A stretch of 32,000 nucleotides of DNA from Nanobdellota archaeon (lineage in GTDB: Archaea > Nanobdellota > Nanobdellia > Pacearchaeales > GW2011-AR1), in contig DAOWGX010000010.1 in assembly GCA_030641715.1 (NCBI GenBank), positions 1,819-33,818 on the forward strand. Reading direction: 5' to 3'. The notes beneath the pieces were generated by a model. The model did no database searches. It saw nothing but the letters and a program-made list of their open reading frames with translations, and had not been told where the DNA came from. The position numbers and the translations under genes are program-made. This document shows, piece after piece, positions 2,657 to 31,622 of this stretch; within the stretch, counting starts at the first letter, position 1; every line of letters begins with the position of its first letter.

Positions 2657-3568
2657 CTACTTTTTCCCCAACTTCACAAAATTATAAGCCGTCCTCGTAG
2701 CTAAAACCCCATCCGCAGCGGCAGTTATTGTCTGCTTAAACGGATTATTCGTCCCATCTCCAGCTGCGAACAAACCTTCAACAGAAGTTCTGCCTTCCTT
2801 ATCAACTTTAATATAACCATTCTCTAATTCAACTCCAAGCCCATCAAAAATTACAGTTAATGGCACAGAACCAACTTCAATAAAAACTCCATCTACATCA
2901 ACCAGCTTAGCCCCATCCAAGGACTCCAACTTTAAACCATTAACATTCTTATCACCTACAATCTCAAGAGGTTTAGAATTATAGATAATCTCAATATTTT
3001 TCATAGCCTCGATCTTTTCCAAATTTATCGGTTCACACCTCATCTTCTCTTTCCGATAACTGATATAAACTTTCTCACAAATACTCGCAAGATAAATCGC
3101 GGCCTTAGCTGCTGAATCAGAACCTCCAATAACAGCCACAATTTTACCTCTAAAAAAATTCCCATCACAAGTTGCACAATATGAAACTCCTTTTCCTAAA
3201 AATTTACCTTCTCCAGGAATGCCTAACTTCCTACGCTCCGACCCAAGACCACTTATAACAGAACTACCAACAAATTTCTTATCACCTACACTAACACAGA
3301 ATCCCTCCTCGACTTTCTCCAACTTATCGATACTTCCAATCTCAAAAACAGCCCCGAATGTCTTCACTTGCTCCTCAAACTTCTTCATTAAATCAATCCC
3401 CGAACCTGTAAATCCTGGATAATTCTCAAACTCTCCAGCAAGATTCGTAGTCCCACCAATCTCCTTCCCAATAATCAAAGTTTTCATACCATAACGCCCA
3501 GCATAAATTGCAGCAGACATTCCAGCAGGACCAGCCCCCAAGATCAACAAATCGTAAATTTCTACCAT
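2657..3568 (-). CDS. trxB: Thioredoxin-disulfide reductase
   Basis: GAGPAGMSAA FAD site, CATCDG redox-active dithiol and GGSDSAAKAA NADPH site. The start is moved from the GTG at 3583 (ORF track) to the first ATG at 3568, which lies 26-27 nt from the TATA box at 3591-3598. Confidence 0.9.
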   Translation of the reverse strand: MVEIYDLLILGAGPAGMSAAIYAGRYGMKTLIIGKEIGGTTNLAGEFENYPGFTGSGIDLMKKFEEQVKTFGAVFEIGSIDKLEKVEEGFCVSVGDKKFVGSSVISGLGSERRKLGIPGEGKFLGKGVSYCATCDGNFFRGKIVAVIGGSDSAAKAAIYLASICEKVYISYRKEKMRCEPINLEKIEAMKNIEIIYNSKPLEIVGDKNVNGLKLESLDGAKLVDVDGVFIEVGSVPLTVIFDGLGVELENGYIKVDKEGRTSVEGLFAAGDGTNNPFKQTITAAADGVLATRTAYNFVKLGKK

Positions 3569-3587
3569 AATAACTTTTAACACTAGA

Positions 3588-3617
3588 CCTTTTTATATCT
3601 TTCAGAATGAACTAAAA
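3588..3617. repeat. Promoter-like direct repeat, copy 1 (CCTTTTTATATCTTTCAGAA..AACTAAAA)
   Basis: Near-identical to 3665-3694, with T5 here versus T6 there. This copy contains the trxB TATA box. Confidence 0.7.
3591..3598 (-). promoter_or_regulatory. TATA box (ATATAAAA on minus strand) for trxB
   Basis: Box centre is about 26.5 nt upstream of ATG 3568. Confidence 0.5.
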
Positions 3618-3664
3618 TAGTTTCTTTTGGTTCCAGGGAGCTTTTCTTTTCTAAAGAAAAGGAG

Positions 3665-3694
3665 CCTTTTTTATATCTTTCAGAAAAAACTAAA
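3665..3694. repeat. Promoter-like direct repeat, copy 2
   Basis: Duplicate of 3588-3617. The two copies are separated by a 9-bp hairpin, CTTTTCTTT-TCT-AAAGAAAAG, at 3641-3661. Confidence 0.7.
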
Positions 3695-3710
3695 TCACCA
3701 ACCAACAACA

Positions 3711-3718
3711 TTTAAATA
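3711..3718 (+). promoter_or_regulatory. TATA box (TTTAAATA) for tyrS
   Basis: Box centre is about 25.5 nt upstream of ATG 3740. Confidence 0.5.
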
Positions 3719-3739
3719 ACTCAGTTCCCAATCCAATAT

Positions 3740-4687
3740 ATGGGCCCAAAAAAGAAGTTAGAACTGATAAAAAGGAACACCGCAGAGGTTTTAAGAGAAG
3801 AAAAATTAAAATCCTCTTTTGGAAAAAAACAACCAATAGTTTATTGTGGATACGAACCTTCTGGAGATTTGCACATAGGCCACTATGTAACTATTCTAAA
3901 ACTAAAAGATTTCGAGGACGCTGGATTCAAAGTTAAAATATTACTGGCAGATTGGCACGCCTTATTAAACAAAAAAGGTGACTGGATTTTCATCAATGAA
4001 CAAGTAGAAAATTGGAAAAAAGCTTTCAAGAAAATTGGACTAAAGAACCCTGAAGTAATTGTCGGAACCAGCTTTCAAAAAAAGCCAGAGTATATCGAAG
4101 ATGTTTTCTCACTTGCCGCAAACTCGACCCTAAATCGAGGAATAAGATCAATGCAAAGTGTAGCTAGAGATATAGACCATGCAAAAGTATCTCAAATTAT
4201 TTACCCTTTTATGCAAGTAGCTGACATGAAAGCATTAAATGTAGACGCCGTCGTTTCCGGAACTGAACAGCGAAAGATTCACATGATTGCCGTCGAAAGT
4301 CTAAAAGACATAAACTATGAAGTCCCCTCATTCGTCCACACTTCATTAATCCCTTCACTCAAGGGTGCCAACGCTGGAAAGATGTCTTCTTCAGACAAGG
4401 GAAGCCTAATCTCTATCAAAGATAGTTCCGAAGAAATAAAGAAGAAAATTTCTAAAGCTTATTGTCCTGAAGGAAAGGAAAACCCTGTTTTAGATATAAC
4501 AAAAATTTTAATCTTCCCAGTATTTGAAAAATTGGAAATCTCTCGTCCTGAAAAATTCGGAGGGGATATAATTTACAATTCTTATAAAGATTTAGAAAAA
4601 GACTTCTTAGATAAAAAACTTCATCCGATGGATTTGAAGAAAGTTATCGGAGAAAAATTATCTGAAATGTTTGAAAAGATTAGATAA
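3740..4687 (+). CDS. tyrS: Tyrosyl-tRNA synthetase, short archaeal type
   Basis: HIGHY (HIGH) and KMSSS signature motifs. At 315 aa it lacks a bacterial-type C-terminal S4-like domain. Confidence 0.9.
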   Translation: MGPKKKLELIKRNTAEVLREEKLKSSFGKKQPIVYCGYEPSGDLHIGHYVTILKLKDFEDAGFKVKILLADWHALLNKKGDWIFINEQVENWKKAFKKIGLKNPEVIVGTSFQKKPEYIEDVFSLAANSTLNRGIRSMQSVARDIDHAKVSQIIYPFMQVADMKALNVDAVVSGTEQRKIHMIAVESLKDINYEVPSFVHTSLIPSLKGANAGKMSSSDKGSLISIKDSSEEIKKKISKAYCPEGKENPVLDITKILIFPVFEKLEISRPEKFGGDIIYNSYKDLEKDFLDKKLHPMDLKKVIGEKLSEMFEKIR

Positions 4688-6875: not shown

Positions 6876-7364
6876 ATGAAACCGAAAATATATGTCGCTA
6901 TAAAGACATTTAACTCTAAAAAAACGGCGTGCCCCAACCAATCTGGAGAATATATCTGTGAGGATAGGGTCTGCCCCAACCTATTAAATATAAATTGTGA
7001 GGGTATTCACAAAGATTGTTTATCCTGTGGAAAAAATATTGAACACCCTCTTTGTCCTGATTGTATCGCAAAAGGTTTCCAACAGTGGATCCAACAATTC
7101 CCCCAAGACAGAGCAAAACTCCAAATAAGATTAGATGAATTCCTAGAAGCACATAGATACCTCGACGGTAAATCTAAAAAATGTATTGCATGCGGAAAAA
7201 ATAACACTCATATCTGCCCATACTGCTTTACAGAATACCTATATAAGATAATTAAAGAGGCTGGTTTAGGGGTTCGAACAATGTCAGAATTTCTATTCAT
7301 CTTCAACTTTGACTTCGATCATCAAGGCTATTCAAAAGAATTAGAAGTCTATGGAGGATACTAA
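6876..7364 (+). CDS. Cysteine-rich zinc-ribbon protein (162 aa)
   Basis: Two CxxC-x7-CxxC motifs (CLSCGKNIEHPLCPDC and CIACGKNNTHICPYC) plus N-terminal CPN..C repeats that coincide with repeat copies A and B. Confidence 0.6.
   Translation: MKPKIYVAIKTFNSKKTACPNQSGEYICEDRVCPNLLNINCEGIHKDCLSCGKNIEHPLCPDCIAKGFQQWIQQFPQDRAKLQIRLDEFLEAHRYLDGKSKKCIACGKNNTHICPYCFTEYLYKIIKEAGLGVRTMSEFLFIFNFDFDHQGYSKELEVYGGY
6931..6963 (+). repeat. Bipartite repeat copy A (GCCCCAACC-N17-TGTGAGG)
   Basis: Inside the zinc-ribbon ORF. The G of GCCCC is at codon position 2. It shares TGCCCCAACCAAT and ATCTGTGAGG with copy C. Confidence 0.75.
6973..7003 (+). repeat. Bipartite repeat copy B (GCCCCAACC-N14-TGTGAGGG)
   Basis: Lies 42 nt after copy A in the same frame. 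It shares GGGTCTGCCCCAACC with copy C, and CTGCCCCAACCTATT and TGTGAGGGTA with copies D and E. Confidence 0.75.
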
Positions 7365-12556: not shown

Positions 12557-12867
12557 TCACTTCGTTCTACAGAAATTGCAGTATCTTCTCCAAACCATTT
12601 TGGAGATCTAATTTTAACATCATAGTTCACGCCAATTTCAAGCCCATGAGGATTACCAATAACTCTCAAATCCGGAGCAGTAGTTCTATAAGCAAGAGAT
12701 TTGTCATCAAAGATTAATGTGTTAAAACCTTCAGTCTTCTCAACATGATATCCCTGATAAACTAAGTTTGTTCTTTCACTTAAGTTTCCAGAACCATTCA
12801 AATACGCTCCTCCAACTAACCCTGCAACAATACCAACTCCTGCAATAATTTTTGTACGTGTTTTCAT
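12553..12867 (-). CDS. Small membrane-anchored hypothetical protein (104 aa)
   Basis: N-terminal TM segment IIAGVGIVAGLVGGAYL. The start is moved from the TTG at 12882 to ATG 12867, 25.5 nt from the TATA box at 12889-12896. Confidence 0.5.
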   Translation of the reverse strand: MKTRTKIIAGVGIVAGLVGGAYLNGSGNLSERTNLVYQGYHVEKTEGFNTLIFDDKSLAYRTTAPDLRVIGNPHGLEIGVNYDVKIRSPKWFGEDTAISVERSD

Positions 12868-12888
12868 AAACAATATAACCAAGAATCA

Positions 12889-12896
12889 TTTATAAA
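12889..12896 (-). promoter_or_regulatory. TATA box (TTTATAAA)
   Basis: Box centre is 25.5 nt upstream of ATG 12867. Confidence 0.5.
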
Positions 12897-12969
12897 TCTT
12901 TCTATTTGTAACTATTATTACGTAACAACATCATAATTGTTCATAATCCCTCATAATTCAATAAGTCTA

Positions 12970-13584
12970 TCAGACAAGTTTAGGAGCATAAAATATCAAT
13001 CTTTCAGATTCGTAAACCTTCTCAAGGGAACTCCAATAACTGCCACTCGGCTTTTCGATAGAAATATCATGATAAGCAATAATCTCAGACTCTCTAGAAA
13101 TTCCAACCTTAAATCCATCAAGAACCTTTTTAGCATCTTTTCCACATTTCTCAAAAACCTTTTGCTCATACTCATTCATAGATAGCTTCTCCTCAGCCTG
13201 TCCCCAAAGTTTACTTCCATCAAAAGTGCAAGAAAATGCGTTCCTTTCGTGTATTACAGAATAAATATCATTAGGATAATCCTCACTAGGTACCCTATTC
13301 AAAATACATCTAGTAATAAGACTCCGATTCTTCGAACTCTGATTAGCTGCCTCAGCATAAAGAATTTTTTGTATCTCTAAATATTCTTTCGCAGAAAAAG
13401 TCTGACTATTTTCATCAACAGAACTAGGTCCATTTGAAACTTTACTCTCCAAACTATCCTTATGTAATCTTTCTACAACATTACCAACATTTTCAGGCTT
13501 AAATGGTTTCTCAAGGTAGGACCCTCCAACTGAAATTGCACTTGCAAGAGTGGCAACCACAATAAAATTACTAATCTTTCCCAT
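12970..13584 (-). CDS. Secreted or anchored SleB-like cell-wall hydrolase domain protein
   Basis: N-terminal hydrophobic anchor. ILYAEAANQS...RCILNRVPSEDYPNDIYSVIHERNAFSC matches the SleB/Hydrolase_2 pattern as I recall it (EA....NRV...FP..I..V....QFS). The start is moved to ATG 13584. Confidence 0.65.
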   Translation of the reverse strand: MGKISNFIVVATLASAISVGGSYLEKPFKPENVGNVVERLHKDSLESKVSNGPSSVDENSQTFSAKEYLEIQKILYAEAANQSSKNRSLITRCILNRVPSEDYPNDIYSVIHERNAFSCTFDGSKLWGQAEEKLSMNEYEQKVFEKCGKDAKKVLDGFKVGISRESEIIAYHDISIEKPSGSYWSSLEKVYESERLIFYAPKLV

Positions 13585-13605
13585 AAACAACCCAAAAAAT
13601 AATCC

Positions 13606-13613
13606 TTTTTAAA
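13606..13613 (-). promoter_or_regulatory. TATA box (TTTAAAAA on minus strand)
   Basis: Box centre is 25.5 nt upstream of ATG 13584. Confidence 0.45.
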
Positions 13614-13628
13614 CTTTCCTATCCGTAA

Positions 13629-14354
13629 CTATTCTTCCGTAACAACACCAGGACTTCCAAGAACCTCAATCCCCTTGTCACTAATACCCATCCCAACAGC
13701 CTTTCTCTCATGCGCCGTTCTCCTCATCTTCGCAATCCGAACCGCCCGGTCACTAACACCTGTAATTCCAGATTCATAAAACACACTAACCGAATCCGAA
13801 AGAAACCTCAAAATATCTGTCTTCGTCCAATCACCATTACTAACCCCACTTATCCAACCCTCCTCAAGACTCTCATCACTAAAAATCGTAGTCACCTTCA
13901 ATCGTTTCATCAGCGACGACAAATCAAAAATAGTTTGCCTAATCTTCCCTTTCTCACTAAGATTCAACGCCAAAACTGAAATAGGATCAAAACAAATTCT
14001 CTTAATATTATTCCGCGCAATCACACTTGTTAATTCAGATTTTAAATCTTCAATAGAAGTTTGTGGAGCAAACCTCATAAACTTGATCTTCCCTTCACCA
14101 CTCAGCTTCGAGAAATCCCAACCATAAGCCATAGCATCATTCAACGTATCTACAATATCAGGTTCAAACGAACAATAAAGCCCATTCTCTCCAAACTGCA
14201 TAGCCCCATTCCAAAGAAATTGCAAAAGAAACGTACTCTTTCCAGAACCAGGTCCACCAACAATTAAATTGTCCGAATTTCTTACAAAACCTCCTTGGCA
14301 AAGCTTATCAAAACCTGCAACACCTGTAGGACATCTATCCACCATCCCTGCCAT
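13629..14354 (-). CDS. Single-domain KaiC/RadA-like (RecA-superfamily) ATPase
   Basis: GGPGSGKSTF Walker A and an N-terminal TGVAGFDKL..GG motif. The start is ambiguous. GGAGGTG lies 7 nt upstream of ATG 14354, but an ATATAAAA box at 14369-14376 fits leaderless initiation at ATG 14345. Confidence 0.8.
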   Translation of the reverse strand: MAGMVDRCPTGVAGFDKLCQGGFVRNSDNLIVGGPGSGKSTFLLQFLWNGAMQFGENGLYCSFEPDIVDTLNDAMAYGWDFSKLSGEGKIKFMRFAPQTSIEDLKSELTSVIARNNIKRICFDPISVLALNLSEKGKIRQTIFDLSSLMKRLKVTTIFSDESLEEGWISGVSNGDWTKTDILRFLSDSVSVFYESGITGVSDRAVRIAKMRRTAHERKAVGMGISDKGIEVLGSPGVVTEE

Positions 14355-17144: not shown

Positions 17145-17654
17145 ATGAAAATCCATGATTTAATAGAAGAACTAGAAGACAGCACAGACTACAAGAAATT
17201 CAAATCAGAAAACCCCTCATCATTTTTCGCAGCAGGATTTTTTATTATAAACACGAAAACAAAGACCAAAGAAATACAACTCGACTTCTTTCTTCCAGAA
17301 CAAGGTAGAATCACAGCTTTTGAATATCCATTCAAAGAACCAAAAATCTTCGACGAGAAGATAAAACCCATACAACCCCAAACAACAGAAATAAAAATAG
17401 ATATAGATGATCTCGAATCTACTTGTAAAAAAATTATCACAGAAAACAACTCTCCAATTATTTTCACGAAAATAATAGCAATTCTAAGAGACAATCAATG
17501 GAATCTGACTTGCATGGATGACATGCTTGGGATAGTTCGGATAAAACTCGATGCAATAACAGGAGAACTGATTGATTTTAACAAGGGAAGTCTTATGGAT
17601 TTTATGGGGATTAAGAAAAAATCAGAAGTACACAAAACAGCGAATAGAGATTAA
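17145..17654 (+). CDS. Hypothetical protein (169 aa)
   Basis: Clean ORF with no motif recognised. Upstream hairpin GAGAGAT-TTTATAAC-ATCTCTC (17087-17108) carries a TATA-like loop. Confidence 0.5.
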   Translation: MKIHDLIEELEDSTDYKKFKSENPSSFFAAGFFIINTKTKTKEIQLDFFLPEQGRITAFEYPFKEPKIFDEKIKPIQPQTTEIKIDIDDLESTCKKIITENNSPIIFTKIIAILRDNQWNLTCMDDMLGIVRIKLDAITGELIDFNKGSLMDFMGIKKKSEVHKTANRD

Positions 17655-18310: not shown

Positions 18311-18934
18311 TCAAAAACCACCCTTCCGAACAACCAAACTAATATTCCTATCCTCTTCCGAACCCACAATCTCAAACCCAGCATCCTCAACCTCTCGCTC
18401 AATCTCGCCCTTATCATAAATATAAGTATACCTATTCTCAATCCCCGCAGAAGTCCACGGAATAAAAGTCTCTTTCGGTTTATTCTTCAGCCTCGGTGAA
18501 TTCTTAGACCAAACCATAATCAAAGCCTCAGCACCCGGTTTCAACACACGATACAACTCACGAATCATCTTCTGCCTCGCTTTCCCCGTCGGAACACAAT
18601 GCAAAACAGCGATACAAATTCCACTATCAAAAAAATCGTCCTCGATAGGAATCTCATTAGAACTAGAATGAAACGTCTTAATCTCCAACCCAAGATTCCC
18701 CGCCTTCTCCCTCGCAAACCCCAACATCCTCCTCGAGAAATCAACCGCATAAACTTTCAAACCCTTCGGAAAAGAAGAAAAATTTCTCCCACTCCCACAA
18801 CCCCAATCAACAACTTTCCCTTTACGCCCCTCCAAAAAATTTCCAACCTCGAGACTAGATTTATTCTTATACTCATTCCACACTGGAGCAATCGTATCCC
18901 AAACTTTTTCTTGATTCATATAACCCTCAAACAT
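18311..18934 (-). CDS. Class I SAM-dependent methyltransferase
   Basis: VVDWGCGSGRN motif I and LKPGAEALIMVW post-motif. The start could be ATG 18934 or ATG 18919. The first of these overlaps the elp3 TATA-like box. Confidence 0.8.
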   Translation of the reverse strand: MFEGYMNQEKVWDTIAPVWNEYKNKSSLEVGNFLEGRKGKVVDWGCGSGRNFSSFPKGLKVYAVDFSRRMLGFAREKAGNLGLEIKTFHSSSNEIPIEDDFFDSGICIAVLHCVPTGKARQKMIRELYRVLKPGAEALIMVWSKNSPRLKNKPKETFIPWTSAGIENRYTYIYDKGEIEREVEDAGFEIVGSEEDRNISLVVRKGGF

Positions 18935-18960: not shown

Positions 18961-20370
18961 ATGAAATCTCCGCGTAAACCAACAAAAACAATCTCAGGCG
19001 TAGCCCCCCTAGCTGTGATGCTCCCTCCGAGAAAATGCGACCACGGCACCTGCCTCTATTGCCCATCCCTAAACGCCCCGCAATCCTACACTCCAGAATC
19101 CCCCGCAGTCCTCCGAGCAAAACAATGCAACTACGACCCTATTAAACAAATCAAAGCCCGATTAAAAGCCTTCGAAGTAATGGGGCACCCAACAGACAAA
19201 ATCGAGCTAATCATCATGGGAGGGACATTTCTGTCTTACCCTAAAGAATTCCAATTCGATTTCATAAAAAAATGTTACGATGCACTAAACCACAAAAAAG
19301 GGTCTGCCCCAACCAATAATAAAAATAAATCTGTGAGGGTAGCAAAATCGTTATCCGAAGCCAAAAAAATAAACGAAAAAACAAAACACCGATGCACAGC
19401 ACTTTGCATAGAAACACGTCCAGACGTTTGCACCGATGAAAATATTAACGATATGCTTGAATGGGGAGCAACACGAGTCGAACTAGGGGTCCAGGCTATC
19501 GACGATGAAATCTATAAAAAAGTAAACAGATGCCACACCGTTCAAGATGTAATCGACGCAACAGCAAGACTAAAAAAAGCAGGATTCAAAATCGGTTACC
19601 ACTTAATGCCCGGTATACCAGGTTCTAACCCAAAAAAAGATATCAAGATGTTTAAAAAAATATTCTCTTCAAAAAATTTCAAACCAGACCAAATAAAAAT
19701 CTACCCTTGCCAAGTTCTGAAAGGAGCAGGAATCGAAAACTTATACTATGGCGGAGAATACATCCCCTACACAAAACAACAAGCTACAAAAATCATAATC
19801 CAGATGTTAAAACTAACTCCGCGATACTGCCGAATCATGCGAATCATGCGGGAAATCCCTCCGAACTACCTCGTTGCCGGAATCAAAAACATCGATCTCA
19901 GAAAAGACATCGAAGAAAAAATCAGGACTAAAAAGATAAAAGTTGACGAAATAAGATTCAGAGAAATTGGTTTTGCACTAAGAGATAAAAGAAAAATTAA
20001 TTCAGAATTAAAACTCAAAATAACAAAATATAAAGCATCCAAAGGAACCGAATTCTTCATTGAAGCAATCAACAAAGACAACATCCTCTTCGGACTTCTT
20101 CGTCTTCGCCTCGACAAAAAAATAGCAACAGTTAGAGAACTTCACATTTACGGCCCAACCTTAAAACTAAACGAAAAAGCAAACAACGCATGGCAACATA
20201 AAGGCTTAGGAAAATTACTAATACAAGAAGCAGAAAAAATTGTAAAGAAGAAAAGTTACAAAAAAATCCGAGTAATCTCGGGGATTGGCGTAAGAGAATA
20301 CTATAAAAAACTAGGCTATAAATTAGATGAAAAGAAAATCTACGTCGAGAAATACTTATCTTTAATATAA
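18961..20370 (+). CDS. elp3: Elp3-type radical SAM / GNAT tRNA-modification enzyme
   Basis: SGVAPLAVML..CDHGTCLYCP radical-SAM cluster motif, IIMGGTF, ETRPD, and a C-terminal GNAT domain (VRELHIYG...QHKGLGKLL). An ATTTAAAC box lies 24.5 nt upstream. The gene contains repeat copy C, and its 3' end is duplicated at 21297-21338. Confidence 0.9.
   Translation: MKSPRKPTKTISGVAPLAVMLPPRKCDHGTCLYCPSLNAPQSYTPESPAVLRAKQCNYDPIKQIKARLKAFEVMGHPTDKIELIIMGGTFLSYPKEFQFDFIKKCYDALNHKKGSAPTNNKNKSVRVAKSLSEAKKINEKTKHRCTALCIETRPDVCTDENINDMLEWGATRVELGVQAIDDEIYKKVNRCHTVQDVIDATARLKKAGFKIGYHLMPGIPGSNPKKDIKMFKKIFSSKNFKPDQIKIYPCQVLKGAGIENLYYGGEYIPYTKQQATKIIIQMLKLTPRYCRIMRIMREIPPNYLVAGIKNIDLRKDIEEKIRTKKIKVDEIRFREIGFALRDKRKINSELKLKITKYKASKGTEFFIEAINKDNILFGLLRLRLDKKIATVRELHIYGPTLKLNEKANNAWQHKGLGKLLIQEAEKIVKKKSYKKIRVISGIGVREYYKKLGYKLDEKKIYVEKYLSLI
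19306..19339 (+). repeat. Bipartite repeat copy C (GCCCCAACC-N17-TGTGAGGG) inside elp3
   Basis: The G of GCCCC is at codon position 1, a different frame from copies A and B. It encodes part of GSAPTNNKNKSVRV. Confidence 0.75.
20320..20359 (+). repeat. Left 40-nt direct repeat (current elp3 3' end)
   Basis: 33/40 identical to 21297-21336, with a perfect 18-nt core AAAATCTACGTCGAGAAA (20335-20352 versus 21312-21329). The offset is exactly 977 nt. Confidence 0.8.
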
Positions 20371-21248
20371 CTAACAAACTGCTTCTCATTTTTCTCAATC
20401 TGATAATAATCTAAGGCATCATAATAATTCTCCAAATCCCCTACAGGAATGTCAATCAAAGGATAACCCCGTTTCCACAAAACCCAATTCATCAAAAGTC
20501 TAGCTAACCTCGAATTTCCGTCCGCAAAAATTTGCATAGAAATTAATCTTAAATGAATTAACGAGGCAAGTTCCAATGGATGCAATTTTCGATTATTGCC
20601 TTTATACCAACAAAAAAATTCCTTAATTTCTTTTTCTAATTCATTCCACTTCGGAGGAACATAAGTCGTCCCCGCAATCTTAACATTTCGTTTCAACTCA
20701 CTCCGAAGTTTCCCGGCAATCTCATTATCTACCCCGTGCATCAAAATCCTATGCAGTTTTTTTATAAAATTCAAATCAAACACTCCTCGATACTTAGTAA
20801 TCATCATAAAACCTTCCTCATGATTCTCAATCTCCTTAGCTGTTCTCAAATTCTTGAATTCTTTCGGAATAATTCCCTCATGTAAAATAAGAAAGGTCTG
20901 TCTTAAAGTTACATCAACCCCTGAAAGCTTAGAACTATCATAGGTATACCTTATCATAAACTCCTCCAAGTTTTTTTCTCTCTCGCCCTCGCTTAATTTT
21001 CCTATCTCCCTAATATATTTTAGTTTCTTATCTTCTATTTTCTCCAACTCTTCACAAGAAAAATATTTAGTTCCCTTTTGTTTAATCTCTTCTAAAAATT
21101 CTTTCCTTATCTTTTCAAGTTCTCTCTTCGGAGGAATTGTTTTACCTATATATTTCTTTTTTTGTTTAATTCTACCACCATCCCGGATAGAATGGATTAA
21201 TACCCAATACTCTTTTCCCGAAACTTTAATTTTTCTAAGCGTCGCCAT
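20340..21248 (-). CDS. Fic-domain protein with degenerate active-site motif
   Basis: QIFADGNSRLAR aligns to HPFx(D/E)GNGRxxR with His replaced by Gln. SSKLSG lies where the inhibitory (S/T)xxxE(G/N) motif is expected, with Glu replaced by Ser. The 3' end overlaps elp3 by 31 nt. Confidence 0.75.
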   Translation of the reverse strand: MATLRKIKVSGKEYWVLIHSIRDGGRIKQKKKYIGKTIPPKRELEKIRKEFLEEIKQKGTKYFSCEELEKIEDKKLKYIREIGKLSEGEREKNLEEFMIRYTYDSSKLSGVDVTLRQTFLILHEGIIPKEFKNLRTAKEIENHEEGFMMITKYRGVFDLNFIKKLHRILMHGVDNEIAGKLRSELKRNVKIAGTTYVPPKWNELEKEIKEFFCWYKGNNRKLHPLELASLIHLRLISMQIFADGNSRLARLLMNWVLWKRGYPLIDIPVGDLENYYDALDYYQIEKNEKQFVSYIKDKYFST

Positions 21249-21270
21249 GTAAAGATTATGTACTACACTT

Positions 21271-21278
21271 ATTTAAAT
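21271..21278 (-). promoter_or_regulatory. TATA box (ATTTAAAT) for Fic gene 1
   Basis: Box centre is 26.5 nt upstream of ATG 21248. It lies inside the cassette. Confidence 0.5.
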
Positions 21279-21296
21279 GTTTTGTTTATGCACCAC

Positions 21297-21336
21297 AAAT
21301 TAGACAAACGAAAAATCTACGTCGAGAAAAAATTAT
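21297..21336 (+). repeat. Right 40-nt direct repeat (relic elp3 3' end)
   Basis: Reads KLDKRKIYVEKKL followed by TAA (21336-21338), compared with KLDEKKIYVEKYLSLI in the live gene. Confidence 0.8.
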
Positions 21337-21433
21337 AACAAGGAACTTTAAAACAACCTTTTTAAATTTAATCCTAAATTTAATCTTACATAAAAATTTA
21401 TAAAGTTTAGTCACTTAGAAGTAATAGTGTAAT

Positions 21434-21868
21434 ATGGAAATTCGAAGATATACAAAAGAGGATAAGGAAGAAATTACCAAGATGGTTTCTGAAATTCTTA
21501 GAGAAATGTTTAATGGAAACCCTGAAGAATTTAAAATATTAAAAGAATTCAACGTGACCAAAGACTACATCTATTATCTCGTCGTCGTTATCGGCAAGAA
21601 AATCGTCGGCGTCGGTGCCTTGAAAAAATTAAAGGATAGAAAAGTAAGAATAAAAAGATTATATGTAATGGAAGACTATCGTCGAAGAGGAATTGCGCAA
21701 AAAATCCTAAATCAACTAATTCGATTCGCAAGAGAACAGAACTTTAAGCAGATTCTTTTCAACACGTACCCTACAATGGAACATGCAAGGCGGTTTCATA
21801 AAAGAAATGGATTCGTAGAAATAATAAGCAACGACCCCTATCAGATACACCTGGCTAAAAAACTATAA
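21434..21868 (+). CDS. GNAT-family N-acetyltransferase
   Basis: Acetyl-CoA motif A, RRRGIAQKILNQL, in a 144-aa single-domain protein. A TTTATAAA box (21397-21404) lies about 33 nt upstream. Confidence 0.8.
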   Translation: MEIRRYTKEDKEEITKMVSEILREMFNGNPEEFKILKEFNVTKDYIYYLVVVIGKKIVGVGALKKLKDRKVRIKRLYVMEDYRRRGIAQKILNQLIRFAREQNFKQILFNTYPTMEHARRFHKRNGFVEIISNDPYQIHLAKKL

Positions 21869-22627: not shown

Positions 22628-23299
22628 TCACTTCCCCTTCTTCCGAATCCTAATCGCCACAAATCCCCCAAGAGCCAAGAGAACGAAAACACCAATCATA
22701 ACCCCACCAGCAATTCCTACCGCACCCGTCACCGCACCAGTTATCATCGAGAAAAACCCTTTACCATCATCAACAACCTCTACATCAACATTAAGTAAAG
22801 TCATACCATCATCCCCACTATCTCCAGATGAACTATTTGACGAATCAGAAGAAGAACTGCTACTTGAACTTGATGAACTACTACTACTTGAAGAAGAACT
22901 GCTACCTCCACCACCAGAACTACCCCCTCCATCATCAACAACTCCTCCTCCCGAACTCAGCGGAAAAACGACCTCCTTCAAAGCCCTACTACCCTCATTA
23001 CCACCCTTATCGACGGCACTAACCCCAAACACATACGTTCCATCAGCCAACACACTTCCAAAATATCCAAGAGAAAAAGAACTCCCAATCAAAACATCGT
23101 CGAGATAAACATTATAATATTCAACACCACTACAATCAGGTTCATCAACAGCCTCGTCCCAACTCAATACAACGTTCCCAGAGACAATAAGCCCCTCAGG
23201 AGCCTCAGGAGCCTGTGTATCAATACAAATATCCCAAGCCGAGACAAATCCTACCAAACAGAACACTGCCAATAAACAACTAAAAAATTTACTATTCAT
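22628..23299 (-). CDS. Surface protein: signal peptide, FN3-like domain, Gly/Ser-rich stalk, C-terminal TM anchor
   Basis: APEAPEGL..LSWDEA...YYNVY...DGTYVFGVSAVDKGGNE is FN3-like. It is followed by a poly-Ser tract and a hydrophobic C-terminus ending RIRKKGK. The gene starts 4 nt after the stop of the giant gene. Confidence 0.7.
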   Translation of the reverse strand: MNSKFFSCLLAVFCLVGFVSAWDICIDTQAPEAPEGLIVSGNVVLSWDEAVDEPDCSGVEYYNVYLDDVLIGSSFSLGYFGSVLADGTYVFGVSAVDKGGNEGSRALKEVVFPLSSGGGVVDDGGGSSGGGGSSSSSSSSSSSSSSSSSSSDSSNSSSGDSGDDGMTLLNVDVEVVDDGKGFFSMITGAVTGAVGIAGGVMIGVFVLLALGGFVAIRIRKKGK

Positions 23300-29902: not shown

Positions 29903-29961
29903 ACCCAACCATAGCATGCCCCAACCTATTCTTTAATATATGTGTGAGGGCACAACAAAAC
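29903..29961 (+). repeat. 59-nt direct repeat D (contains the bipartite core GCCCCAACC-N16-TGTGAGGG)
   Basis: 57/59 identical to 31564-31622. The core is at 29918-29950. Confidence 0.85.
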
Positions 29962-30126: not shown

Positions 30127-30132
30127 TATTAA

Positions 30133-30203
30133 TGGACGTGCCGGGAATATAACCCGGATTGAAACCGTTTCAGAGTATTGTACTAACATTGTACGACACG
30201 CCC
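30133..30203 (-). tRNA. Non-canonical tRNA-like gene, anticodon GAA (Phe), with a G3.U70 pair
   Basis: 71-nt cloverleaf. Acceptor stem is GGGCGTG/CACGTCC, followed by U8. D arm is GTAC-AATGTTA-GTAC. Anticodon arm is ATACT-CTGAAAC-GGTTT (U33, GAA, A37; one U.U and one G.U). Variable loop is CAAT. T arm is CCGGG-TTATATT-CCCGG (G53-C61, U54, U55, A58). Discriminator is A73 and there is no encoded CCA. It lacks G18G19 and C56. A TATA box lies 28.5 nt upstream and a hairpin with T5 lies downstream. Confidence 0.5.
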
Positions 30204-30227
30204 ATTAATATGCCTAATTTTTCAATC

Positions 30228-30519: not shown

Positions 30520-31464
30520 ATGGCATCAATTGAAGAAAGCAAGAAAGGGACGAACACCTACCTTTCCTTCGCAAAGAAACTAACTTTTATGAACAAACAG
30601 TTTCTCTATAAAAAACATATCGGAAGAAAAATCAAGAATATATCCAAAGAAGAATATATCTTAGACAATTTAAAAGAAATAGTCGAATCAGAATTTGAAT
30701 TTAGAAAAAAGTATTTAGACCAAATAAAAAACAAACTATCCCATAATAAAAACCTACCTGAAAGAATAGAAAAAAAAGCCATAGAGATAATTAATCTGCA
30801 GGAAGGTAATAAATATCCGGAAGCGATAAATTCTGATTTCTCAATTAAATTTATTTATAATTCTAATAATATTGAAGGTTCAAAATTGCCCGAAGAAGAA
30901 GTAAAAAAAATTGTTAAACTTGGAAAAACTAATTATAAAAATGAAAACGAAGCTCGAGAAGCTTTCAATTCGATTGACGCTTTTAATTATCTGGATGACT
31001 TTAATTTTAATATCCCTTCTGTTAAAAGACTCTACAACATCTTAACGAAAAATCTTATAATGGAAAACGGAAACCCCTACCCTAAAGGTTTCAAAAAAAT
31101 AAACGTGATTGTAAACAATTCTCAAACAACACCTCCTGAAAAAGTTGAAAAAGAACTCTATGAATTACTGGACTGGTACAAAAAGAACAGGGGGAAAATT
31201 CATCCGATAATTTTAGCGTTGGACTTTCATTTAAGATATGAACAAATTCATCCATTTAGAGATTGTAATGGCAGAACGGGCAGGATGATTATGAATAAAA
31301 TTTTGATGCAGAATCGATATCCCCCAATAATTGTCTACAAAGAAAATAAATCTGCCTATTTTAATTCAATAGCAAAAGCAAACGAAGGTAACAAGAAAAA
31401 ATATTACCAGTTTATGTTAGAACAGGCCGATAAAAGTTATGATTATATTCGGGAACTTTTTTGA
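30520..31464 (+). CDS. Fic-domain protein, class II-like with an intact catalytic motif
   Basis: HPFRDCNGRTGR matches HPFx(D/E)GNGRxxR except that Gly is replaced by Cys. The upstream SNNIEG fits the inhibitory (S/T)xxxE(G/N) helix motif. Confidence 0.85.
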   Translation: MASIEESKKGTNTYLSFAKKLTFMNKQFLYKKHIGRKIKNISKEEYILDNLKEIVESEFEFRKKYLDQIKNKLSHNKNLPERIEKKAIEIINLQEGNKYPEAINSDFSIKFIYNSNNIEGSKLPEEEVKKIVKLGKTNYKNENEAREAFNSIDAFNYLDDFNFNIPSVKRLYNILTKNLIMENGNPYPKGFKKINVIVNNSQTTPPEKVEKELYELLDWYKKNRGKIHPIILALDFHLRYEQIHPFRDCNGRTGRMIMNKILMQNRYPPIIVYKENKSAYFNSIAKANEGNKKKYYQFMLEQADKSYDYIRELF

Positions 31465-31563: not shown

Positions 31564-31622
31564 ACCCAACCATAGCCTGCCCCAACCTATTCTTTAATAT
31601 ATGTGTGAGGGTACAACAAAAC
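31564..31622 (+). repeat. 59-nt direct repeat E
   Basis: 57/59 identical to 29903-29961. The core is at 31579-31611. Confidence 0.85.

Follow-up and report, generated by a model that had tools for sequence, protein, structure and literature searches.

The elp3-Fic locus

The stretch of DNA analysed here, called the window throughout, comprises 32,000 nt of the Nanobdellota archaeon contig DAOWGX010000010.1 (assembly GCA_030641715.1; positions 1,819-33,818, forward strand), and its subject is a Fic gene lodged in the 3' end of elp3. Coordinates are positions of the window, and L-numbers denote comparison loci. The closest genomes are metagenome-assembled genomes (MAGs) labelled Pacearchaeota, Woesearchaeota or Nanoarchaeota; these relatives place the host among DPANN archaea, in the Pacearchaeota/Woesearchaeota group. 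The elp3 gene (18961-20370, plus strand) encodes a radical-SAM and GNAT tRNA U34 modification enzyme of 469 amino acids (aa) with the Pfam domains Radical_SAM, Radical_SAM_C and GNAT. It passes the curated threshold of NCBIfam TIGR01211 (540.5 bits, cutoff 350), with residues 5-466 covered. The Fic gene, of 302 aa, faces it on the minus strand (20340-21248), and the two overlap convergently by 31 nt (20340-20370). Beyond Fic lies a gene for a GNAT acetyltransferase (21434-21868, plus strand; Pfam Acetyltransf_1), the original 3' neighbour of elp3. An overlap echoing this one occurs at L081, where a member of the same Fic family (3001-3906) overlaps a convergent open reading frame (ORF) of 98 aa (3835-4131) by 72 nt.

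An earlier note on this DNA had described a 40-nt direct repeat around the Fic gene, and the repeat finder bears this out in every particular. The left, functional copy (20320-20359, plus strand) is AAATTAGATGAAAAGAAAATCTACGTCGAGAAATACTTAT; it spans Elp3 codons K454-L466 and reads KLDEKKIYVEKYL in the elp3 frame. The right copy (21297-21336, plus strand; to 21338 with its stop) is AAATTAGACAAACGAAAAATCTACGTCGAGAAAAAATTAT and reads KLDKRKIYVEKKL followed by TAA (21336-21338). The copies are identical at 33/40 positions, start 977 nt apart and share an exact 18-nt core, AAAATCTACGTCGAGAAA, at 20335-20352 on the left and starting at 21312 on the right, both on the plus strand. At one side of this core five mismatches are crowded into 7 nt. 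The similarity is not due to chance. The second-best match to the left copy in the entire window is 24/40, and a non-self match of at least 33/40 is found for 0.27% of 3000 sampled natural 40-mers, all of them from another genuine repeat. Allowing up to two mismatches, the 18-mer has only these two sites in the window, and none of 100 dinucleotide shuffles reproduces the pair. The earlier note had proposed both the comparison with background and the search for further copies of the core.

The duplication derived from the target is properly 33 nt long (20320-20352), with five differences between the copies. The next 7 nt (20353-20359) match at five positions, are Fic codons Y-K-D in antisense and are better seen as junction microhomology or chance; it is because of this imperfect extension that the repeat appears to be 40 nt rather than 33. 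The insert is 944 nt long (20353-21296), essentially a promoter and the 302-aa Fic ORF, and its point of insertion lies six codons ahead of the elp3 stop.

At this point the two genes have exchanged termini. The last three to four codons of Fic and its stop lie within duplicated elp3 sequence: the protein runs to ...YIKDKY and ends F-S-T-stop, coded inside the left 18-nt core, which holds the stop (CTA on the plus strand, 20340-20342) and the codons T, S and F. In return, elp3 has acquired the tail Y-L-S-L-I-stop (20353-20370, plus strand) from the antisense of the conserved Fic C-terminal codons (...YIKDKY), so that Elp3 now ends ...KLDEKKIYVEKYLSLI, that is, ...KIYVEKYLSLI, before its stop and the ORF is intact with a substituted tail. 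The replacement terminus claimed for elp3 is thus real, and the description of the interval as holding only a minus-strand Fic gene with its own TATA box, running into the left repeat, also holds.

The promoter is a module of 48 nt on the minus strand (21249-21296), whose parts were delimited in an alignment (A2) of the upstream regions of seven independent Fic loci. Reading towards the start codon, the alignment shows TGTAGTACATAA, ~8 nt, an invariant TTTAAATA, ~3 nt, GTAGTACATAA, ~8 nt and ATG. The window has, on the same strand, a degenerate box 1, GTGGTGCATAA (21286-21296), a TATA element, TTTAAATAA (21270-21278, with ATTTAAAT at 21271-21278), and a box 2, GTGTAGTACATAA (21256-21268). The first TGTAG box, with which conservation in the family begins, coincides exactly with the right junction of the window, where the outer edge of box 1 abuts the right repeat copy at the insertion boundary (21296/21297); nothing is shared beyond. 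At the other end, conservation stops at ...YI.KKY[LF], the left junction. Past this point the tails vary in length from 0 to 20 residues and the DNA is unrelated; no conserved sequence was found downstream of the Fic ORF across the family. Microhomology amounts to 3-4 nt (GAAA) at the left junction and 1-2 nt at the right, and a repeat scan detected no terminal inverted repeats at the ends of the insert. An ATG created at the right junction (21288) opens an ORF of 16 codons that is probably meaningless. In the family promoter two copies of TGTAGTACATAA flank the TATA box TTTAAATA, an arrangement suggestive of an autoregulatory operator, to which the N-terminal three-stranded beta domain of the protein may bind.

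Empty sites in relatives and the relic terminus

Elp3 scans of species-representative genomes and metagenome contigs yielded ~75 elp3 loci. Sites without Fic, for which the earlier note had proposed a search, are present in three Pacearchaeota-type MAGs (L019, L003 and L004). In the window, the GNAT gene is followed by a ribbon-helix-helix (RHH)/PIN toxin-antitoxin pair, an unannotated 223-aa ORF (22628-23299) and a 2041-aa surface-type protein. In L019 the order is elp3, GNAT (89% aa identity), RHH (95%), PIN (92%) and a homolog of the 223-aa ORF, which is the order of the window minus Fic; its Elp3 is 90% identical to that of the window over the part covered. L003 and L004 likewise have elp3 followed directly by GNAT, and the spacer between these genes is ~85-97 nt in all three. 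The Elp3 proteins of ~45 relatives end ...(K)IY[VM]EKxL/I, for example KLDKQKIYVEKEL, KIDKQKIYVEKKL and KLDKEKIYVEKRL, each followed by the stop. These ends match the form of the right copy in the window and not its functional terminus, as expected if the downstream copy is an alternative elp3 ending, which the earlier note had taken it to be. The 18-nt core itself terminates elp3 in L019 and L004.

The alignment of these loci (A1) shows that the sequence from the right copy to the start of GNAT is collinear with the elp3 end and spacer of L019, L003 and L004, and that the left copy follows the relatives up to 20352, beyond which lies Fic antisense. The right copy and the spacer together match the elp3 end and spacer of L019 at 119/137 positions (87%). 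Taken alone, the right copy matches the elp3 end at 38/42 positions in both L019 and L004, and the 95-nt spacer of the window (21339-21433, plus strand), which includes the GNAT promoter, matches the 96-nt spacer of L019 at 81/95. The 100 nt before the right copy agree with the 100 nt before the L019 elp3 end at the background level (52/100), in contrast to 79/100 for the 100 nt before the left copy. The functional left copy itself matches the L019 elp3 end at 32/42, below the value for the right copy.

A second Elp3 C-terminal motif occurs only in the window and in L001, a separately assembled public metagenome scaffold with an identical arrangement (one mismatch in 5433 nt), which exact-protein look-ups returned as the single other contig with elp3 and Fic so placed. 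The ~75 elp3 loci contain no further relic Elp3 terminus, and none apart from the window and its twin has this Fic family beside elp3. Given the empty sites, the collinear right copy and spacer and the restriction of the second motif to this lineage, Fic at elp3 is, on comparative grounds, a derived, lineage-specific insertion, with the original terminus preserved as a fossil in the right copy. Other Elp3 tails also depart from the common form: L033 (~2107-2166) has an extended tail, ...KIYVEKKIITPMIR before the stop, and L012 and L048 have a 30-residue extension, tails that may point to further rearrangements where elp3 ends.

The Fic protein and its family

The Fic domain is recognized by Pfam (PF02661, E=2.8e-17) and by a phmmer match to FICD (3e-19). 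Foldseek returns BT_2513 and FICD (E ~1e-7, TM ~0.5) for a predicted model of mean pLDDT 65, which was used solely to confirm the Fic fold. The protein has >550 homologs, of which the best 120 are 64-75% identical to it, 301-324 aa long and found in Nanoarchaeota, Pacearchaeota and Aenigmarchaeota; the closest relative has 75% identity. No match was found among IMG/VR viral contigs, and matches on bacterial plasmids and phages are all <37% identical.

The window motif, QIFADGNSRLAR, departs from the canonical HxFx(D/E)GNGRxxR, and it does so in company. The family motif is Q-[PILM]-F-x-D-G-N-S-R-[LIV]-[SA]-R (QxFxDGNSRLxR, typically QPFxDGNSRLSR): glutamine occupies the position of the catalytic histidine in 119 of the 120 best homologs (P0001-P0120), and serine replaces the second glycine in 118 of those. 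Alignment with FICD places the family glutamine on the catalytic histidine and a serine on the inhibitory glutamate of class II. The best PADLOC match is SoFic (5.3e-22; residues 80-278, 200/361 model positions), followed by the candidate system PDC-S04, and the NCBIfam SoFic equivalog scores 14.9 bits against a cutoff of 550. SoFic is described in PMC12249575 as a toxic AMPylating abortive-infection protein; because the catalytic histidine is missing, AMPylation of this type cannot be assumed for the window protein, and by its motif the whole Q-motif family is a doubtful AMPylase. It may consist of pseudo-enzymes or have a new activity. We infer that the gene is a stand-alone, Fic-fold accessory gene of putative toxin- or defence-like character. 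Such a reading would fit its neighbours, which are GNAT and RHH-PIN here and HepT-MNT, ParE, NYN and MazE elsewhere, and would also fit the patchy, multi-locus distribution of the family.

Other loci of the Fic family and other cassettes

Ten independent genomic contexts of the family were examined and all are different, with neighbours elsewhere that include Nre, ATP-grasp, TatD, TrmB/IleRS, UvrD, HepT-MNT and dihydroorotate (DHO) dehydrogenase. Four of the ten have bracketing direct repeats. In the window the repeat (33-40 nt, 83% identical) lies 0 nt from the first promoter box and overlaps the Fic stop, at a distance of -13. In L078 the repeat is at least 24 nt long (23/24 identical), lies 28 nt from the first promoter box and again overlaps the stop (-4); its right copy coincides with the start codon region of the following gene, at which the contig ends. 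In L083-88 it is an exact 24 nt, or ~38 nt with a 3-nt indel, 17 nt from the first promoter box and ~113 nt from the stop. In L097/98 it is 64 nt long (60/64) with sharp edges, 125 nt from the first promoter box and 63 nt from the stop. The repeats of the window, L078, L083 and L097 are unrelated to one another in sequence and differ in length, and no homology was found between the flanks of different Fic loci. All that the window and L083 repeats have in common is the 7-mer TACGTCG; it was considered as a common core of the different events and rejected, being compatible with chance.

A uniform scan was made of 68 non-redundant sources (481 kb) for bracketing repeats scoring at least 18 within 400 nt of an ORF. 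Fic ORFs were bracketed in 4 of 11 cases against 9 of 365 for other ORFs, several of the latter being tandem paralogs (Fisher p = 2.5e-4).

Several further cassettes were seen in relatives. The defence island of L084 has the form of an integron-like array with no integrase in view; here the NYN cassette lies between the copies of a nested 79-nt repeat (661-739 and 2174-2252; 96% identical) that carries the promoter and the start of the MNT gene. At the elp3 locus of relatives, small cassettes bear a signature like that of the window Fic. The spacer between elp3 and the methyltransferase gene, which is the upstream neighbour of elp3 in the window (18311-18934), is an insertion hot spot in relatives (L005 222-868; L007 2708-3979; L024 1-1292; L022 779-3887). 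L005 has a RelE-like toxin-antitoxin pair between 69-nt spacer duplications and L007 a similar pair between repeats of 44 and 62 nt; these 44-69-nt duplications cover the spacer and the first codons of both elp3 and the methyltransferase gene. In L024, at a contig end, copies of the elp3 5' region (segments of 81/86 and 43/45, together ~200 nt) enclose a 153-aa ORF, and in L022 the copies of a 28-nt repeat are 3.1 kb apart. A canonical Fic gene lies directly 3' of elp3 in L045 (5363-6530; Elp3 76% identical), in the orientation opposite to that of the window Fic. It is 27% identical to the latter, has the motif HPFSDGNGRTGR and is bracketed by a 21-nt direct repeat (20/21) with a hairpin of 13-bp stem on each side. 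It is an independent arrival of a Fic gene in the elp3 neighbourhood.

How the insertion may have arisen

The account towards which we lean, with modest confidence, is a duplicative insertion that did not depend on an integrase and was joined through microhomology at both ends, rather than the work of a site-specific recombinase on a fixed att site. A fragment of ~944 nt, carrying Fic and its 48-nt promoter, would have entered the elp3 end and duplicated 33 nt of the target. Joining would have been illegitimate or microhomology-mediated, for example if replication had switched template to foreign DNA and come back to the chromosome 33 nt behind the point at which it had left; an equivalent illegitimate join between two sister copies would be another route. 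The duplication would keep both neighbours and the newcomer functional, and in compact genomes such products would be enriched. The cargo would probably be a selfish or defence-type gene, SoFic-like in sequence, that has been gained repeatedly at different DPANN loci. A single att site is unlikely because the repeats of the family differ in both sequence and length. The account also draws on the lack of a recombinase in the 32 kb and of terminal inverted repeats, on an insert reduced to the minimal gene unit, on the excess of bracketing repeats around Fic ORFs, and on the target duplications around other small cassettes near elp3 in relatives. Five differences within the 33-nt duplication and a nearest Fic at 75% identity imply either that the event is old relative to strain divergence or that the two copies come from different lineages.

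Several points weigh against this account. The bracketing repeat is absent in six of the ten Fic contexts. In the L084 defence island four copies of a ~46-nt site (623-668, 862-907, 2897-2942 and 4028-4073) separate ParE, NYN, MNT-HepT and Fic cassettes, which suggests that a specific site was used repeatedly in that genome. The relic is nearer to the relatives than the functional copy is, which is unexpected if the copies began identical and only the relic was free to drift. An identical core with clustered mismatches beside it is also expected of hybrid attL/attR sites or of a Campbell crossover between diverged homologs. The mechanism is read from its end-products only. Finally, no strain above 90% Elp3 identity, which might show the native half of the repeat and date the event, is present in the databases, and clustering at 90% joins no further protein to Elp3, Fic or GNAT.

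Recombination of the att or Campbell type is the main rival; the earlier note had raised att sites by analogy. A circle of ~977 nt, made up of Fic and one segment resembling an elp3 end, would have recombined with the elp3 terminus within the 18-nt core, through a tyrosine recombinase acting in trans, as for a cis-mobilizable element (CIME), or through host homologous recombination, and the two copies would be hybrid attL and attR. Excision would be expected to give ...GATGAAAAGAAAATCTACGTCGAGAAAAAATTATAACAAGG... and a circle whose junction joins ...TTTATGCACCAC to AAATTAGACAAACGAAAAATCTACGTCGAGAAATACTTATC...; a possible alternative empty allele has ...GACAAACGAAAAATCTACGTCGAGAAAAAATTATAACAAGG... 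joined to upstream elp3. Besides the form of the mismatches and the L084 array, with its one ~46-nt site between successive cassettes, this has in its favour that repeats of 24-64 nt are within the reported range of archaeal att sites, that the repeats would permit precise excision restoring the canonical elp3 end, and that archaeal integrated elements often occupy the 3'-distal part of a protein gene, as do 14 of 68 in Thaumarchaeota (PMC6563490). It is nevertheless rather unlikely. Pfam scans of ORFs of at least 100 aa revealed no integrase, transposase, resolvase or reverse transcriptase in the 32 kb, in agreement with the note's statement that the cargo is a single gene and no recombinase is visible. 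Rfam and ARAGORN found no tRNA or other non-coding RNA that could be the target at the elp3-Fic site; they gave only an unrelated tRNA-Phe (30132-30204). Other insertions of the same Fic family have repeats unrelated in sequence, length and position, so that one attP or one integrase specificity cannot explain the family, and the origin of an elp3-like segment in the cassette is left unexplained. Furthermore, the part of the right copy expected to derive from the element (GACAAACGA) resembles the native GACAAACA[AG] of relatives, and it is the supposedly native part of the left copy (GATGAAAAG) that deviates; this is at odds with the simplest expectation for attL/attR hybrids, without being decisive against them. 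The insertion into the elp3 3' end and its relic, as the note read them, thus stand on the empty sites and the collinearity, whereas the analogy with att sites is undermined by the missing recombinase and the unrelated repeats of the family. On family-wide evidence from sequence, the att-type mechanism is unproven and less likely than the integrase-independent event.

The deviant left copy would be better accommodated if the incoming DNA had already been an elp3 3' end overlapped by Fic. One end would then have recombined by homology inside elp3, the Fic-promoter end would have been joined illegitimately 40 nt before the recipient stop, and the recipient terminus would survive as the relic. 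The functional copy is indeed the more foreign-looking of the two against L019, the differences between the copies lie in codons that vary among Elp3 orthologs, and homology-facilitated illegitimate recombination is documented for transformable bacteria (PMC3240628). This account is improbable all the same: it presupposes DNA uptake by these archaea, no other genome among the ~75 elp3 loci has this Fic family at elp3, and ahead of the repeat the sliding-window identity of elp3 to L019, L003 and L004 marks out neither a clear breakpoint nor a clear segment from a donor. A mosaic elp3 with its 3' part from a donor was also sought in an identity profile against 14 relatives; it was rejected, no convincing breakpoint being seen. 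It is very improbable that Fic at elp3 is ancestral and that the empty sites arose secondarily, each by a precise deletion between the repeat copies. Recombination in the 18-nt core would restore the end ...KIYVEKKL-stop, which makes precise loss mechanistically possible, but Fic is present here in only one of ~45 related lineages, three independent relatives that share the GNAT neighbour are free of it, parsimony disfavours so many losses, and a repeat-bearing ancestor would itself need an earlier duplicative insertion. Chance similarity or an assembly artefact might be suspected in an A+T-rich genome (36% G+C) known from metagenome contigs, and can hardly be the explanation. The repeat far exceeds the background maximum and the shuffles, the relic is collinear with orthologous termini and spacers, a second assembly (L001) has the same arrangement, and an imperfect 40-nt repeat is shorter than assembler k-mers and would not be expected to cause a chimeric join.

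Relation to known systems

By analogy, the closest known situation is that of elements integrated at the 3' end of a protein gene between att repeats, together with their integrase-less derivatives. In Streptococcus thermophilus, ICESt1 and ICESt3 and the integrase-less CIMEs derived from them occupy the 3' end of fda. The window resembles att-flanked elements in that the last codons of a housekeeping gene are the target, direct repeats of tens of nucleotides flank the insert, relatives have an empty site, and the target gene is intact because the element side supplies a usable terminus. It differs from them in that the cargo is one gene of 0.94 kb with no integrase, there is no att core common to the family and the ends of the insert are not fixed. 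Direct repeats forming attL and attR are likewise described for thaumarchaeal integrated elements with 3'-distal targets in protein genes (PMC6563490).

Transposons and casposons resemble the window in having a copy of target sequence on either side of the inserted DNA. Target-site duplications of transposons are short and of fixed length, 2-15 bp, and those of casposons are 14-15 bp; the duplication here is 33 nt and those elsewhere are 24-64 nt or more, and neither terminal inverted repeats nor a transposase or Cas1 could be found. Integron cassettes, including those of archaeal integrons (PMC9668308), are similar in being single-gene, promoter-proximal toxin, GNAT or defence cassettes that accumulate at a hot spot, and the L084 relative has cassettes divided by a repeated site. 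The window Fic, however, has its own promoter, the flanking repeat is a host coding end rather than an attC hairpin, and there is no IntI or attI; inspection and an inverted-repeat scan, the only means used, revealed no attC-like palindrome at the end of the cassette. An integron reading was rejected for the window site, where the repeat is orthologous host coding sequence.

Events of the fork stalling and template switching (FoSTeS) or microhomology-mediated break-induced replication (MMBIR) kind, or homology-facilitated illegitimate recombination (PMC3240628), share with the window the lack of a dedicated enzyme and of defined ends, microhomology of 1-4 nt and a duplication of variable length. 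They differ in that here they would have recurred for one gene family, which itself needs explanation by selection or donor abundance. Partial duplications of the chromosome, giving merodiploids, arise during natural transformation of Streptococcus pneumoniae, as reported in PMC3784515. The cargo compares with SoFic and with class II Fic AMPylases such as FICD in its fold, its stand-alone gene and its setting amid toxin-antitoxin and GNAT genes, and departs from them throughout the family in having glutamine for the catalytic histidine and serine for the inhibitory glutamate. We know of no description of template-switch or illegitimate insertion processes in DPANN archaea. In sum, the window shows the insertion of one gene in minimal form and without a recombinase, marked by a target duplication of unusual length and a reciprocal exchange of termini.

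Other genes and repeats in the window

The remaining genes of the window are of a housekeeping kind and include TyrRS, TrpRS, ThrRS with the archaea-specific editing domain, a KaiC-type ATPase and thioredoxin reductase. A second, different Fic gene (Fic2; 30520-31464, plus strand, 314 aa) has the near-canonical motif HPFRDCNGRTGR. It is enclosed, together with tRNA-Phe(GAA) on the minus strand, by a 58-nt direct repeat (29903-29960 and 31564-31621; 56/58, the central 34 nt exact). Each of the two Fic genes of the window thus has a bracketing repeat, and these two are the only kb-spaced direct repeats in the 32 kb that exceed an isolated exact 16-mer.

The core of the repeat around Fic2 is a palindromic mini-element of ~42 nt, GCCCCAACC-N17-GTGAGGG(TAGGGTCT), which occurs in the window at 6931-7003, 19299-19340, 29918-29950 and 31579-31611. 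It also occurs in L003 (698-773), L006 (2889-2922 and 3902-3935), L008 (6831-6863), L081 (2709-2742, 2844-2877 and 5040-5073) and L100. The site at 19299-19340 lies inside elp3 and forms an in-frame insert of 14 aa, GSAPTNNKNKSVRV, that is missing from all 13 aligned relatives of the window Elp3. Two tandem copies lie inside the ORF at 6876-7364, and one or two in-frame copies are found in the L006 and L003 homologs of a 169-aa ORF (17145-17654). Between the window and L100, a relative of 92% identity, copy number varies between one and two. The mini-element is reminiscent of the palindromic elements of Rickettsia, which likewise insert in frame. A 91-nt direct repeat (12843-12933 and 13560-13650; 71% identical), consisting of a promoter and start-codon region, brackets a gene for a bacterial-type cell-wall hydrolase (12970-13590; Pfam Hydrolase_2), and this locus may have arisen by an earlier insertion that was likewise duplicative.

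Significance for DPANN archaea

Mobile elements of DPANN archaea are, to our knowledge, almost unknown. At this locus a filled site, empty sites and a fossil terminus are all visible, so that a streamlined archaeal genome can be seen to have gained a foreign gene inside the end of an essential-type gene and to have kept the latter. The case also shows how convergently overlapping genes can arise in one step. If the same holds generally in DPANN, long and variable target duplications around single-gene cassettes would represent a distinct mode of gene gain, and their simple signature, a gene bracketed by the duplicated end of its neighbour, would serve to find recent acquisitions in metagenome-assembled genomes. 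A tentative and, in our estimate, unlikely extension is that an undescribed DPANN process, either independent of recombinases or driven by an unrecognised host enzyme, spreads small selfish or defence cassettes (the Q-motif Fic, the second Fic type and toxin-antitoxin pairs) by inserting gene-sized DNA and duplicating 20-90 nt of target. Overlapping gene ends, together with fossil termini and promoters, would result from such a process, and its repeated use of a site would yield integron-like arrays of cassettes separated by target copies. The Q-motif Fic family is abundant and highly conserved, and by its motif it may represent a new class of activity.

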